From the IMG/VR virus record IMGVR_UViG_2531839131_000018: DNA of 41,766 nucleotides; one strand, written 5' to 3'. The notes below the pieces were generated by a model, which searched no databases, was not told where the DNA came from, and saw nothing but the letters and a program-made list of their open reading frames with translations. The position numbers and the translations under genes are program-made. The DNA comes from a virus (taxonomy: Duplodnaviria; Heunggongvirae; Uroviricota; Caudoviricetes). Below, piece by piece: positions 4,510 to 11,999 of the stretch (positions are counted from its first letter, which is position 1; each line of letters begins with the position of its first letter).

Positions 4510-5091
4510 TATCGCGTCCTCAACAATGAATTTTGTGATGCGGTGCCTGGTGCCTCCAGGTGACGTTAACCAGTTAACAATTAACGCCGGATACAGAGAA
4601 CCCACCCATAAGAACCAATACGGAGGTCAACTAGCCTTTTTAACTGTTCCGCGTGCGCTTAGCCGCATTCACCGCATCACAAAATTCACTTTAAAAAGGG
4701 CGGCAGAGCAGTCACGGAGTAAAACTGATACCGCCAAACGTCACCAGAAAATTGATAACAGAGGGCGTTGCAGCGGAGTTGTCACTTAAGTGTATGGTCA
4801 ACCTGACAACCCGGTGCTTCATCGGGAAGACATGAACCCCCCGCCATACTTACCGCCGCGCCATTTCGCGGAGTGCCACAACCGGAAGCGCACGGTCGAC
4901 GAAAATTTAACGACAGGCTATCTATGAACCAGCTACCTCGCCGTGCGCTTTCGCGTTATGGTCTGACTTTTCAGGGAAATATCCTTTCAGTAAACTGTCA
5001 GTTCCGGATGCTCACCCGTGTCCGGCGCACGCACTCCACCTCACCCGTGGAGAACTCCTTAATTACCAACCTTAGCTTCGTTGGTTAGCTA

Positions 5092-7110: not shown

Positions 7111-7383
7111 ATGAATGAACATATTAAGAAAAAGGTTGCGGAAAAATTCTCCCAGCGAGAACTGGCTATGCTGATGAGCACGAAACAACAAAGTGTATCT
7201 CGTTGGTTCAACTCTAAGTTCCCTGCATCAAGGGTGATTCATTTGTGTCAATTGATGCAGTGGGAGGTTGTTCCCCATGAGCTCCGACCAGACATATACC
7301 CTAACCCAACCGACGGTTTACCTGTTGGATTCAAGGTTAACACATCAAATGCACCGGAGTTGATTCATGAAAATCAAGCATGA
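7111..7383 (+). CDS. Cro-like / YdaS-like HTH protein (90 aa)
   Basis: GGAGGT Shine-Dalgarno 6 nt upstream; HTH-like segment SQRELAMLMSTKQQSVSRWF; divergent from the repressor. Confidence 0.65.
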   Translation: MNEHIKKKVAEKFSQRELAMLMSTKQQSVSRWFNSKFPASRVIHLCQLMQWEVVPHELRPDIYPNPTDGLPVGFKVNTSNAPELIHENQA

Positions 7384-7792
7384 ACACATCCGCATGGCGA
7401 TGAATGCCTGGGCGCATCCGGACGGCGAGAAAGTACCGGCTGCAGAGATTGCCAAAGCGTATTTTGAGCTGGGAATGACGTTTCCTGAACTGTACGGCTA
7501 CAGCCATCCGGAAGCCCTGGCTCGCAATACTCAGAAAATATTCCGCTGGGTGGAGAAAGACACCCCTGATGCTGTTGAAAAAATTCAGGCGTTGTTACCA
7601 GCGATCGAAAAAGCAATGCCACCTCTGCTGGTGGCCAGAATGCGCAGCCACAGTTCAGCTTATTTTCGGGAGCTGGTGGAGACGCGGGAGCGACTGGTGA
7701 GAGACGCTGATGATTTTGTCGCAGTGGCGATCGCTGGTTTCAACCAGATGAATCGTGGTGGTCCGGCAGGTAATGCAGTGGCTGTACATTAA
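7367..7792 (+). CDS. YdaT-like protein (141 aa; CII-like or toxin-like family, function uncertain)
   Basis: Position directly after the cro-like gene with overlapping start; length and composition fit YdaT-like proteins of Rac-type prophages (from memory). Confidence 0.55.
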   Translation: MKIKHEHIRMAMNAWAHPDGEKVPAAEIAKAYFELGMTFPELYGYSHPEALARNTQKIFRWVEKDTPDAVEKIQALLPAIEKAMPPLLVARMRSHSSAYFRELVETRERLVRDADDFVAVAIAGFNQMNRGGPAGNAVAVH

Positions 7793-7811
7793 GAACGTTT
7801 ATGGGGTTAGG

Positions 7812-8777
7812 ATGAAGCTCCTTTTTGCCGAACGCCCGCTGGTTATAAACACACAACTGGCTATGAAAATTGGTTTAAACGAGGCCATTGTGTTGCAGCA
7901 GCTGCATTACTGGCTGAGAGATACCAGTTCCGGCATGGAACACGATGGTGTTCGCTGGATTTATAACACAACGGATCAATGGCTGGAACAGTTTCCGTTC
8001 TGGTCAGAGTCAACGTTAAAGCGCGCGTTCGCAAGCCTGAAAACACAGGGGCTTTTGCGTAGCGAAAAGCTCAATAAGTCGAAGCGCGACATGACCAATT
8101 TCTACACGATTAATTACGAGAGTGAGCTTTTAGATGATGGCAAAGTGAGCGAATCGAGCAGGTCAAAATGCACCGCCCCATCAGGTCAAATTGACGCGAT
8201 GGAAGAGGTCAAAGTGAAACGTTCCATTGGTTCAAAACGACCCAATGTCATCAGGTCAAAATGGCCCGATGATCCTACAGAGATTACTACAGAGATTACT
8301 ACAGAGAATAAAAACACTTCTTGTCCGGACGCTTCGCAACCGGACGGACAGACAGCAGAACAGGATTTTTTAACCCGACATCCTGATGCAGTTGTGTTCA
8401 GTGTAAAAAAACGCCGATGGGGAAGCCAGGAAGATTTGGCGTGTGCGCAGTGGATCTGGGGGCGGGTTGTAAACCTGTACGAACAGGCTGCCAGCGACGA
8501 TGGCGAGATCACGCGACCGAAAGAGCCCAACTGGACGGAATGGGCCAATGACGTGCGCATGATGCGGATGCTGGATGGCAGAACTCACAGGCAAATTTGC
8601 GAAATGTTCAGCCGGGCGCAGCGGGATCCGTTCTGGATAAAAAACGTCAGGAGCCCGTCGAAACTCCGCGAAAAATGGGACGAACTGGCAATTCGTTTGT
8701 GGCGCGGTTCTGCGCAGCGTTGTGTGAATCACATTTCTGAACCGGACACCGAAATTCCGCCGGGATTCAGGGGGTAA
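7812..8777 (+). CDS. Phage replication initiation protein (O-like replisome organiser, 321 aa)
   Basis: Located directly upstream of a DnaC-like loader; contains an internal iteron array (ori) in a low-complexity linker (TEITTEITTE); N-terminal DNA-binding-like region. Confidence 0.75.
   Translation: MKLLFAERPLVINTQLAMKIGLNEAIVLQQLHYWLRDTSSGMEHDGVRWIYNTTDQWLEQFPFWSESTLKRAFASLKTQGLLRSEKLNKSKRDMTNFYTINYESELLDDGKVSESSRSKCTAPSGQIDAMEEVKVKRSIGSKRPNVIRSKWPDDPTEITTEITTENKNTSCPDASQPDGQTAEQDFLTRHPDAVVFSVKKRRWGSQEDLACAQWIWGRVVNLYEQAASDDGEITRPKEPNWTEWANDVRMMRMLDGRTHRQICEMFSRAQRDPFWIKNVRSPSKLREKWDELAIRLWRGSAQRCVNHISEPDTEIPPGFRG
8156..8310. repeat. Iteron array, candidate phage replication origin inside the O-like gene
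   Basis: Copies of (C)AGGTCAAA(A/T)TG at 8159-8170, 8181-8193, 8205-8216, 8252-8263 plus a degenerate copy near 8231; then tandem 12-mers TACAGAGATTAC at 8275-8298 and an A-rich stretch. Confidence 0.6.
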
Positions 8778-8783
8778 CGGGCC

Positions 8784-9530
8784 ATGAAAAATATTGCGAC
8801 AGGTGGTGTTCTTGAGCGTATCCGTAAGCTGGTCCCGCAGCATGTAATCGCGCCGTACCGGACAGTTGACGAGTGGCGAGAGTGGCAACTGGCAGAAGAG
8901 CGAAAACGTAGCGAGGAGATCAACCGCCAGAATCGCCAGTTGCGGGTGGAAAAAATCCTGAATCGTTCGGGCATCCAGCCTCTGCACAGCAAATGCTCGT
9001 TTGCGAATTATCAGGTGCAGAACGACGGGCAAAAACACGCGCTGAGCCAGGCAAAATCCATCGCTGACGAACTGATGACCGGGTGCACGAATTTTGTGTT
9101 CAGTGGTAAGCCGGGTACCGGAAAGAATCACCTTGCAGCCGCCATTGGTAATCATCTTCTGGCGAAAGGTCGCAGCGTGATTGTGATAACGGTGGCTGAT
9201 GTGATGCTGGCGTTACACAACAGCTACGACAACAAAAACTCAGGCGAAAAATTTTTACAGGGGTTGTGTGATGTTGACCTGCTTGTCCTGGATGAAATCG
9301 GAATGCAGCGGGATACGCGCAACGAGCAGGTCACGCTGAACCAGATAGTCGACCGCAGAACGGCTTCGATGCGTAGTGTCGGAATGCTGACGAATCTGAA
9401 CCACGTAGCGATGAGTACGCTTCTTGGCGAGCGTGTAATGGACCGCATGGTCATGAACGGTGGTCGCTGGGTGAATTTTAACTGGGAGAGCTGGCGTTCG
9501 AATGTCAGACACCTGAGGGTTGTGAAGTAA
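8784..9530 (+). CDS. DnaC-like helicase loader (IstB-like AAA+ ATPase, 248 aa)
   Basis: Walker A GKPGTGKNHLAAAIG, Walker B DLLVLDEIG; typical position after the replication initiator. Confidence 0.9.
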   Translation: MKNIATGGVLERIRKLVPQHVIAPYRTVDEWREWQLAEERKRSEEINRQNRQLRVEKILNRSGIQPLHSKCSFANYQVQNDGQKHALSQAKSIADELMTGCTNFVFSGKPGTGKNHLAAAIGNHLLAKGRSVIVITVADVMLALHNSYDNKNSGEKFLQGLCDVDLLVLDEIGMQRDTRNEQVTLNQIVDRRTASMRSVGMLTNLNHVAMSTLLGERVMDRMVMNGGRWVNFNWESWRSNVRHLRVVK

Positions 9531-9551: not shown

Positions 9552-10304
9552 ATGGAAACCGTTTTTGACGCGCTGAAAGCAATGGGAAAAGCCACATCCA
9601 TAGAACTTGCTACGCGACTTGATATCAGTCGTGAAGAAGTGCTGAACGAACTATGGGAACTGAAAAAGGCTGGTTTTGTTGATAAAAGCGCGTACACCTG
9701 GCGTGTGGCTGATAACAACGTTCAGCAGGAACAGCCAGCGCAGGCAGAACTGCCGGAAGAAACCACCACAGCAACAGTAGCGAAAATCTCAGAGTGCGAT
9801 TTAACCGCGACGATTGAACAACGCGGACCACAAACGGCGGATGAGCTGGATGCGGTGTTCGGTACCACATCACGCAAAGTGGCTTCAACGCTGGCAATGG
9901 CAATCAGCAAAGGTCGTCTGATTCGCGTAAATCAGGACGGTAAATTTCGTTACTGCATGCCGGGCGATAATTTACCAGCAGAGCCGAAAGCCGCGCTGGT
10001 AACGGAAAGTGATGGTAAGGCCTTTCCTCAGCCAGCAGGTGTTGCGTTACCAGTACAGGAAGTTGCAACACAGGAAGATATAAAAACAGAAACTGTGGCT
10101 GATATTGTGCAATCGTTACCATCGTTTACTGAAACGCGAGCGGATGACCTGGTTTTACCATCGCTGCATATGGCAAACCGCGAATTGCGTCGGGCGAAAA
10201 GTCATGTCCAGAAGTGGGAGCGAGTCTGTGCCGCGCTGCGGGAGCTGAACAAGTACCGGGATATTCTGCGGGATATTGCCGCCACCAGAGAACAGCAGCG
10301 GTGA
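9552..10304 (+). CDS. Hypothetical protein with two winged-helix-like segments (250 aa)
   Basis: ORF with AGGA upstream; repeated motifs [17 protein letters not shown] and [16 protein letters not shown] suggest DNA binding; no family recognised. Confidence 0.55.
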
Positions 10305-10618
10305 GTGGCTGGGAGAAGTGGTGCCGTGCGGAAATTATGATACTCCGGCAGTGTGCGGGAGCGATGACAGTCGAAAGCATCGGTTATCTGATTGGCCGTA
10401 GTGAGTCAGCCGTCAGGACGAAAGCGCGGGAACTGGGTATCAGTCTGATGTTGCGGGGTGATTTTCACCAGTCGGTAAAAATTCCCCAGAGCAGTGTTGA
10501 GGTGATACGACAGCTACATGAGCAGGGCATTTCAGGTCGCGAGATAGCGGAAAAATTCGAAATGCCGCTGCGCACGGTGAATAACTATGTTTATTTCGAC
10601 AGGAGGGTACAAGGGTGA
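10303..10618 (+). CDS. Hypothetical HTH-containing protein (about 105 aa; start uncertain, GTG 10303 or ATG 10337)
   Basis: Two HTH-like segments (ESIGYLIGRSESAVRTKAREL, SGREIAEKFEMPLRTVNNY); start overlaps upstream stop. Confidence 0.45.
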
Positions 10619-11022
10619 GGGTTTATATCGCCGGTCCAATGACGGGGTATGAAAATTTCAACCGTGAGGCGTTTCACAAGGCAGAAGAGGAACTGAAACG
10701 GGAAGGGCATACAGTCTTGAACCCGGCAGTACTTCCGGACGGGCTGACACAGCCGCACTACATGGATATCTGCATGGCAATGATACGTAGCGTGGATGCG
10801 ATTTATATGCTGAAAGACTGGCAACGGTCAGCAGGCGCTAAAGCGGAAATGGCTCTGGCGGAGAAGCTAGGGCATGTGGTTGTTTTTCAGAGGGGGCGAT
10901 ATGCCGATTCTCTGGTTTCAGGAGGTGTGGGAAAAAGAAATGTGGGAAGGTCTTGTGATTGTGGCCGAAACAGTTCTTTTATTATGGTCTGTGATTGCGT
11001 GTATTTTTATGATTTATTGTGA
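10615..11022 (+). CDS. DUF4406-like / nucleoside 2-deoxyribosyltransferase-like protein (135 aa)
   Basis: N-terminal MRVYIAGPMTGYENFNREAF is the hallmark opening of DUF4406 proteins (from memory); AGGAGGG Shine-Dalgarno 7 nt upstream of a GTG start overlapping the upstream stop. Confidence 0.65.
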   Translation: MRVYIAGPMTGYENFNREAFHKAEEELKREGHTVLNPAVLPDGLTQPHYMDICMAMIRSVDAIYMLKDWQRSAGAKAEMALAEKLGHVVVFQRGRYADSLVSGGVGKRNVGRSCDCGRNSSFIMVCDCVYFYDLL

Positions 11023-11129
11023 ATGATGTGAATCTCGCGGTGGCCACTGAATTGCAACCATTACCCCCTGTGATGTAATTGTGGGGTAATGGTTGCGCAG
11101 GCATAGCGACAGGACTGGATGAGAAAAAT

Positions 11130-11552
11130 ATGACAAAATTTACCAGAGAGCAATTGATTGCTCATGCTAATGAAAGTGTGAAATCCATGAAATTTGCTGC
11201 GGGACAGACCGCGTTTAAGACTTCAAGAGTTGCCATTGAAATGGATCTTGCACTTGCCCGTATTGCGCTTGCCTCACTTGAAGCAATGCCAGTTGCATGG
11301 TCCTGTGCTAACAATATGGTTTTGTTCAATGCTGAATCTGTTGCGGCATACGCAAAACACTCAGCCATTGCGCCAAAACCCCTGTACGCTGCGCAACCGG
11401 CATCACTTTCACATGAGGAAGAGTTGACAATGCTGGTTAAACAATTGGTAAGTCAGTTGAAAAAAGCGAAACCAGATTGCAAATTACCGGAGAAGGCGAT
11501 GGACTACCTGAAGCGGAACGAACTGATAAGTGCAGAGGATGTTTTACGATGA
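11130..11552 (+). CDS. Hypothetical protein (140 aa)
   Basis: ATG with GGATGAG upstream; ORF MTKFTREQLIAHANESVKSMKF...; no family recognised. Confidence 0.5.
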   Translation: MTKFTREQLIAHANESVKSMKFAAGQTAFKTSRVAIEMDLALARIALASLEAMPVAWSCANNMVLFNAESVAAYAKHSAIAPKPLYAAQPASLSHEEELTMLVKQLVSQLKKAKPDCKLPEKAMDYLKRNELISAEDVLR

Positions 11553-11632: not shown

Positions 11633-11843
11633 AAACGGTTTGCAGTGAAAGGGGAGTTAAGTAGAATTGCTGCGGGTGCTTGAGGCTATCTGTCTCAGGC
11701 ATGAACACCAAAAGGCAGATAGAGAAAAGCCCCAGTTAACATTACGCGTCCTGCAAGACGCTTAACATTAATCTGAGGCCCAATCTATGTCTCACAAATG
11801 TAGGTTAGCCTCTTACGTGCCGAAAGGCAAGGAGAAGCAGGCT

Positions 11844-11999
11844 ATGAAGCAGCAAAAGGCGATGTTAATCGCCCTTATCGTCATCTGTTTAACCGTCATA
11901 GTGACGGCACTGGTAACGAGGAAAGACCTCTGCGAGGTACGAATCCGAACCGGCCAGACGGAGGTCGCTGTCTTCACAGCTTACGAACCTGAGGAGTAA
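11844..11999 (+). CDS. hok: Hok/Gef-family type I toxin (51 aa), closest to HokD/RelF from memory
   Basis: MKQQKAMLIALIVICLTVIVTALVTRKDLCEVRIRTGQTEVAVFTAYEPEE shows the Hok signature (transmembrane segment, conserved Cys, C-terminal EVAVF..YE); an in-frame upstream ATG at 11787 gives a mok-like extension. Confidence 0.85.
   Translation: MKQQKAMLIALIVICLTVIVTALVTRKDLCEVRIRTGQTEVAVFTAYEPEE

Follow-up and report, generated by a model that had tools for sequence, protein, structure and literature searches.

The subject of this study is a gene at positions 10615..11022 (plus strand) of a Rac/Qin-type lambdoid prophage, IMG/VR record IMGVR_UViG_2531839131_000018, whose whole stretch of 41,766 nucleotides is referred to below as the window. 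The gene encodes a standard DUF4406 protein, that is, a minimal version (about 94 residues) of the fold shared by nucleoside deoxyribosyltransferases (NDTs), DNPH1, and MilB. It ends in 41 additional residues which are very probably a run-on and not a new domain. The conserved residues of the domain suggest, tentatively, the chemistry of a nucleotide N-glycosidase. Taken as a whole, the statement that joins DUF4406 identity, run-on tail, and N-glycosidase chemistry is slightly favored.

Family Identity and Gene Structure

The assignment of the protein to DUF4406 is practically certain. Residues 1-91 cover positions 1-91 of the 91-position Pfam profile PF14359 (E 3.4e-37; 127.2 bits against a cut-off of 22), a match that lies far beyond the chance level. 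The original prediction, made from the letters of the window, had placed a DUF4406-like gene at 10615-11022 and had recognized the conserved N-terminus of the family in its opening. The end-to-end Pfam match bears out the former claim, and the latter is borne out by the fit of the N-terminus MRVYIAGPMTGYENFNREAF to the family consensus MKIYIAGPMTGYxNFNRxAF. All the family-conserved residues are kept, namely, Y4 (Y/F), G7, G11, F20, N36-P37, L40-P41-x-G43, Y49, and S72-x-G74-A75-x-x-E78, a conserved column being one that, in three family alignments, is invariant or reaches at least 90% conservation. The protein also matches PHROG 355, annotated as “nucleoside 2-deoxyribosyltransferase” (E 3.6e-46), and a second PHROG annotated as a MazG-like pyrophosphatase; NCBIfam and PADLOC give no match. 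DUF4406 is a large family, with 11,169 cluster representatives (50% identity clusters) found as homologues at E ≤ 0.001.

The open reading frame (ORF) encodes 135 amino acids (aa) and starts with GTG. This codon (10615-10617) shares bases with the TGA (10616-10618) of the helix-turn-helix (HTH) ORF located 5′ of it. The resulting GTGA at 10615-10618 is a four-nucleotide overlap of the kind that typically suggests translational coupling. A Shine-Dalgarno-like AGGAGGG, read directly in the sequence, lies at 10602..10608 (plus strand), 6 nt before the GTG. Both elements had been named in the original prediction and are found in place. The start codon region (10609-10620) differs among relatives: three of them (L001-L003) begin with MRVRVY and bear a duplicated GTGAGG hexamer at the start (GTGAGGGTGAGGGTT), whereas the window allele has a single GTGAGG copy and begins with MRVY, and the sequence immediately 5′ also differs from theirs.

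The closest annotated counterparts are the RefSeq DUF4406 proteins of Rac/Qin-type Escherichia coli prophages (WP_001266139, Rac-SA53 rac19), with 83-87% identity over the aligned sequence. With WP_001266139-type proteins, the window protein shares a full-length profile match and a stretch of 92 residues at the N-terminus in which nearly all positions are invariant. With the Rac/Qin-type relatives it also has in common its position after the replication genes and an overlap of 4 nt with the HTH or DUF977 gene that precedes it. A typical DUF4406 member, on the other hand, is a single domain of 93-101 aa with a short acidic tail; the window allele is longer than that, as it bears a nonhomologous run-on of 41 residues, and it starts with MRVY instead of MRVRVY. 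The gene is neither unusual nor new. Both the family and the gene are already named in RefSeq, Pfam, and PHROGs, and the identical protein is present in many public contigs, so that the find is correct but ordinary.

Fold and Putative Active Site

The core domain (residues 1-94; 10615..10896, plus strand) is delimited by the Pfam match, by the predicted local distance difference test (pLDDT) of the AlphaFold model, by the conserved columns, and by alignment to solved NDT and cytidine monophosphate (CMP) N-glycosidase chains. The model is confident for these residues, which form four strands and three helices in a flavodoxin-like α/β fold matching solved members. Foldseek against the PDB returns NDTs at the top (2a0k, E 2.7e-5), followed by MilB/BcmB and DNPH1/Rcl, all with probability 1.00. 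At the sequence level, a profile built from 48 diverse members aligns end to end with the NDT of Trypanosoma brucei (2a0k; E 0.0012), placing YIAGP on YIAGP and S-x-G-A-x-x-E on D-C-G-T-A-F-E. The same motif is aligned on S-P-G-T-H-I/V-E of the CMP N-glycosidases BcmB and BlsM (4jen, 5vto). In these alignments, E78, at the start of the helix that follows the third strand, stands on the Glu of GTAFE in 2a0k and of GTHIE and GTHVE in 4jen and 5vto. PDB sequence searches with the single sequence or a shallow profile gave nothing relevant, and only the diverse 48-member profile reached NDT and CMP N-glycosidase chains. With two single reference sequences verified against the PDB, those of DNPH1 and the Lactobacillus leichmannii NDT, hhalign of the shallow profile gave meaningless short alignments, and hmmsearch found only a nonsignificant local S-x-G-x-x-x-E match, with a negative score for DNPH1.

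The relation to deoxyribosyltransferase folds that had been proposed is therefore supported by profile and fold searches alike. The putative catalytic Glu, singled out for a conservation check, is invariant in the family alignments as E78 and corresponds to the Glu of solved enzymes. Overall, S72, G74, A75, and E78 show little or no variation in the three alignments. Three functional positions of the characterized enzymes are thus conserved: the nucleophile Glu (E78), the Tyr of strand 1 (Y4), and a Ser at the phosphate-binding position (S72). S72 precedes the nucleophile by six residues and is aligned with the Ser of S-P-G-T-H-x-E; nucleoside transferases have Asp at this position.

Other parts of the characterized active sites are matched less well or not at all. 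In the L. leichmannii NDT, the general-acid Asp is D72, and the C-terminal part gives Asn123 and the C-terminal carboxylate of the neighbour. The general-acid Asp of NDTs is aligned beside Y49, in a variable column; D51 is conserved in the enterobacterial subgroup only. In DNPH1, the triad is Y24/D80/E104, and the phosphate is held by S98 together with S128′ of the partner subunit (PMC10603095). No structured sequence follows residue 94 in the window protein, and a counterpart of S128′, the second phosphate ligand, is not found.

DUF4406 therefore resembles DNPH1/Rcl, MilB, BcmB, and BlsM in having the same fold, an S-x-G-x-x-x-E motif with the phosphate-position Ser and the nucleophile Glu, and an aromatic residue in strand 1. 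It differs from the DNPH1/MilB group in being about 50 residues shorter, without the helical extension that gives the partner's second phosphate-binding Ser, and in lacking a general-acid Asp conserved across the family; significant sequence similarity to DNPH1 was not detected. NDTs (PF05014; L. leichmannii, T. brucei) are the best structural matches, and YIAGP and the catalytic Glu are in register with 2a0k, but the DUF4406 protein scores below the Pfam cut-off, has Ser for the motif Asp, and misses the C-terminal third. Two other families of small phage and bacterial members, DUF1937 (PDB 1t1j) and DUF7768, also match the nucleoside deoxyribosyltransferase fold; they are separate sequence families and equally uncharacterised.

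Proposed Activity and Its Alternatives

The original prediction had put forward nucleotide-pool manipulation, DNA modification, or counter-defence as roles of the protein, all of them hypothetical. From the conserved residues the following mechanism can be proposed. The protein would be expressed from the early rightward operon of the Rac/Qin-type lambdoid prophage and would probably be dimeric, like its relatives. It may cleave the N-glycosidic bond of a (deoxy)nucleoside 5′-monophosphate via a covalent ribosyl-Glu78 intermediate. The nucleotide pool would thereby be altered or cleaned at an early stage of lytic growth, perhaps in a step that follows a deoxynucleoside triphosphate (dNTP) pyrophosphohydrolase. 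Beyond the motif, the support from nucleotide metabolism is circumstantial. It consists of the MazG-like annotation of the second PHROG, of structural relatives among viral proteins in BFVD whose names include “dATP/dGTP diphosphohydrolase N-terminal domain-containing” (maybe fusions), and of the neighbours of the gene in a distant prophage (L116, 4470-6411), where it directly follows a Dam-type methyltransferase gene and a PF04447 dATP/dGTP diphosphohydrolase gene lies about 1 kb upstream. A scan of 33 longer homologues revealed no informative Pfam fusion partner.

Several points weigh against N-glycosidase chemistry. The general-acid Asp of NDT and DNPH1 has no family-wide counterpart. The C-terminal 40-60 residues which in these enzymes complete the site of the neighbour, including the second phosphate-binding Ser, are absent from the family, and this makes the substrate, and even catalysis, uncertain. 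At the sequence level the connection to solved enzymes is weak, with the T. brucei alignment as the best case and PF05014 scoring under its cut-off, and the link to nucleotide metabolism is based on few cases and on database names. The literature searched on DUF4406 and PF14359 contains annotation mentions only, and no functional, biochemical, or genetic study was found in it. That on phage and prophage deoxyribosyltransferases yielded one preprint, which deals with PF05014 NDTs in diaminopurine phages, a different family.

Two other activities have to be considered. The name given in PHROGs and in some GenBank records would make the protein a genuine nucleoside 2-deoxyribosyltransferase that swaps bases between deoxynucleosides for salvage. 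This is quite improbable, as the PF05014 score of 15.1 bits (E 0.027) falls short of the cut-off, which is 28.8, the Asp of D-x-G-T-x-x-E is an invariant Ser (S72) here, and the domain stops after strand 4, where it is aligned to residues 9-106 of the 161-residue NDT and is left without the C-terminal part. In the other alternative the protein would serve counter-defence, as a TIR-like hydrolase or a noncatalytic sponge whose target is nicotinamide adenine dinucleotide (NAD+) or an immune signal derived from nucleotides. Such a role is unlikely: NDT, MilB, and DNPH1 outscore TIRs in the comparisons, it is with those enzymes that the motif aligns, PADLOC gives no match, neither a conserved partner nor a defence-linked setting was seen in the contexts examined, and no experiment hints at it. 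N-glycosidase chemistry remains the preferred, if tentative, reading, and, judged by its motif residues, the family seems closer to a nucleotide N-glycosidase than to the transferase which often serves as its name.

Origin and Variation of the C-Terminal Tail

The tail (residues 95-135; 10897..11022, plus strand) lies outside the family. Pfam leaves out residues 92-135, most relatives cease to be similar at about 10893 (close to residue 93), and in the 48 diverse members nothing is conserved past strand 4, the C-termini being short. In the AlphaFold model, pLDDT drops below 50 for residues 95-135, compared to about 90-96 for residues 1-94. Only 36 of the 5426 complete E. coli genomes share the 250-bp stretch at 10885-11135, each copy being at least 98% identical, and those carriers that could be recognized are enterotoxigenic E. 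coli strains. Neither the phage and plasmid collections nor any of the GTDB species representatives contain this stretch. Degenerate-codon and hairpin patterns are likewise missing in all GTDB species representatives. There are no diverged copies for comparing nonsynonymous and synonymous substitution rates (dN/dS). An Rfam search of the tail found no family, and a terminator search called none.

The frame of the tail depends on a G homopolymer at 10892-10896 (plus strand; codons R93-G94), at the end of the DUF4406 domain. Near-identical prophages carry G5, G6, G7, G8, or GGGGAGGGGG at this site. In 31 copies, some of which are IMG/VR loci repeated from a single contig, the tract is G6 in 20, G5 in nine, G7 in one, and G8 in one; the nine G5 copies, as counted by script, include L024, whose real sequence there is GGGGAGGGGG. 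As a result of this variation in length, the tail is read in all three frames. The G5 form, present in the window, gives a product of 135 or 137 aa with a Cys-rich tail, G6 gives 116 aa with a different, basic tail, and G7 gives 139 aa, with a hydrophobic peptide fused in frame. G5, G6, and G7 all occur on one haplotype whose flanks are identical, and G5 is found on two haplotypes; the tract length must therefore have changed repeatedly. The G5 of the window is not a sequence error, since many independent assemblies have the identical allele. Programmed frameshifting at the tract was also considered and rejected, there being no in-frame X-XXY-YYZ heptamer and the tract being too short for transcriptional slippage.

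The variation has an effect on annotation. In RefSeq annotations (L004, L005, and L006), the Prokaryotic Genome Annotation Pipeline (PGAP) accepts the G6 allele (116 aa) as an intact gene and reports those with G5 and G7 as pseudogenes that have lost the C-terminus; the G5 allele is cut at the junction and its C-terminus is flagged as lacking. The G6 tail is, however, also mere read-through. A short G-run at a module junction thus makes pipelines call one allele “intact” and its neighbours “pseudogenes,” while no tail looks functional.

These data fit a simple origin. A recombination junction would have replaced the usual short acidic C-terminus of the family and its stop codon, and the slippage-prone G-tract at the junction would decide in which frame the ribosome runs on, with the G5 allele of the window leading to 135 aa. 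The Cys-rich C-terminus had been suspected of being a run-on in the original prediction, and this suspicion gains support from its nonhomology, its modelled disorder, and the other frames read in near-identical relatives. The last 41 residues are most likely without function.

The same instability could be taken as decay, the gene being then a pseudogene of a cryptic prophage with a nonfunctional product. The PGAP calls on the G5 and G7 alleles and the unstable frame after residue 94 speak in this direction, and the prophage bears DicF and hok/sok, which occur in cryptic E. coli prophages. The core domain is, however, intact, with every family-conserved residue present and no frameshift or stop within residues 1-93 in the copies examined, and at least 24 contigs carry the allele in identical form. 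Moreover, since the C-termini of the family itself are short and unconserved, a junk tail need not inactivate the protein, and decay has accordingly a low probability. At the opposite extreme, the tail would be functional, either because its 41 Cys-rich residues bind metal or because slippage at the G-tract switches between a soluble form and a membrane-anchored fusion of DUF4406 to a transmembrane segment (the G7 form). In two copies, L006 (G7) and L024, the hydrophobic ORF is indeed fused in frame to DUF4406, and the tract length recurs on identical haplotypes. But fusions make up the rarest class of alleles (2 of about 31), G5-G8 is short for programmed phase variation, and a canonical in-frame slippery heptamer is missing. 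The Cys-rich frame, in turn, has no homologues, is altered by all four observed substitutions, and is modelled as disordered, so that a functional tail is very improbable and the run-on is the reading retained here.

Another coding capacity overlaps the tail. A candidate membrane-type ORF of 41 codons (MPILWFQEVWEKEMWEGLVIVAETVLLLWSVIACIFMIYCE) lies at 10901..11026 (plus strand), shifted by +1 from the DUF4406 frame; it has an ATG of its own, preceded by a GAGG (10890-10893) at a distance of 7 nt. Its ATG and open frame are preserved in 31 of 31 copies examined. The four substitutions of the tail are all nonsynonymous in the DUF4406 tail frame, whereas in the small-ORF frame one is synonymous and three are conservative (F>L, L>I, and I>V). 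In so small a sample, this pattern weakly favors 10901..11026 as a putative small membrane protein. Variants include an in-frame deletion of 15 nt and a lineage that loses the stop and gains 8 residues. No match was found for the small ORF in Pfam, PHROG, or NCBIfam, nor by tblastn in phages or plasmids. Between the tail and the next gene, at 11054..11096, there is a perfect 14-bp inverted repeat (GCAACCATTACCCC / GGGGTAATGGTTGC) without a T-run after it. The hairpin has a fold energy of −33 kcal/mol (z −3.8 versus shuffles); it was not called as a terminator, has no Rfam family, and is absent from GTDB species representatives.

Genomic Setting and Distribution

An ORF of the YdaT toxin family (7367-7792, plus strand), so named from the Pfam label on the identical gene of public contigs, lies directly 5′ of an O-like replication gene (7755..8777) and overlaps it. 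A DnaC-like loader gene (8784..9530) and a DUF1627 (ydaW-like) gene (9552..10304) separate the O-like gene from the HTH gene (10301..10618, plus strand). The start of the latter is uncertain (GTG 10301, ATG 10340, or GTG 10214). Sub-threshold Sigma70_r4_2 and HTH_23 matches fall at residues 95-127 of its longest ORF, phrog_323 (“transcriptional regulator”) matches with E 5e-23, and public contigs annotate a product of 105 aa. On the 3′ side, the DUF4406 gene is followed by a phrog_660 gene (11130..11552), by the sok antitoxin RNA (11674-11849, plus strand; Rfam, 120 bits), and by a hokD-type toxin ORF (11844-11999, plus strand) with an overlapping mok-like ORF (11787..11999); a DUF968 gene comes after hok. 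The location of the DUF4406 gene between the DnaC-like loader and hok agrees with the original prediction, which had also put it inside the replication module; it actually lies just 3′ of the replication genes and outside them, in the accessory early region. Elsewhere in the prophage there are a full-length DicF antisense RNA (4698-4749, minus strand; Rfam, 76.7 bits) and two tRNA genes (17042-17114 and 17215-17288, plus strand; Rfam). DicF is an element of the dicB region of the Qin prophage.

Annotations of Rac-SA53 and of many E. coli chromosomes show the same order of genes, and the 1-kb region is matched in 1472 of 5426 complete E. coli genomes, about a quarter. The exact 135-aa protein is found in 37 blocks of the contig index and in 24 of the 24 contigs read, that is, in at least 24 public E. 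coli contigs. Six loci fetched with this protein have identical synteny and all carry G5. The other DUF4406 contexts examined are plain prophage early regions, and no conserved partner or defence-linked setting was seen among them.

Biological Significance

As found in the window, the gene is a routine, already annotated accessory gene of a lambdoid prophage and of little importance by itself, and recombination together with homopolymer slippage most likely produced its odd tail as a by-product. The present analysis makes only small additions: a G-tract whose frame polymorphism influences annotation, a small candidate ORF, and an argument from individual residues in favor of an N-glycosidase. 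A far wider picture can be drawn, in which DUF4406 would be a very large phage family of minimal nucleotide N-glycosidases that destroy particular (deoxy)nucleoside monophosphates early in infection, alone or with dNTP pyrophosphohydrolases, and in which the G-tract would act as a membrane-tether switch in a minority of cells; this picture is speculative and its probability is small. If it were true, the destruction of these monophosphates could serve to sanitise the pool or could deprive host defences that depend on nucleotides of their precursors. A precedent is Dmp of phage T5, which starves the Kongming defence of nucleotide precursors. Given that the family is abundant and keeps the catalytic Glu, Tyr, and Ser of its characterized relatives, a simple enzyme assay would be a cheap route to its function.
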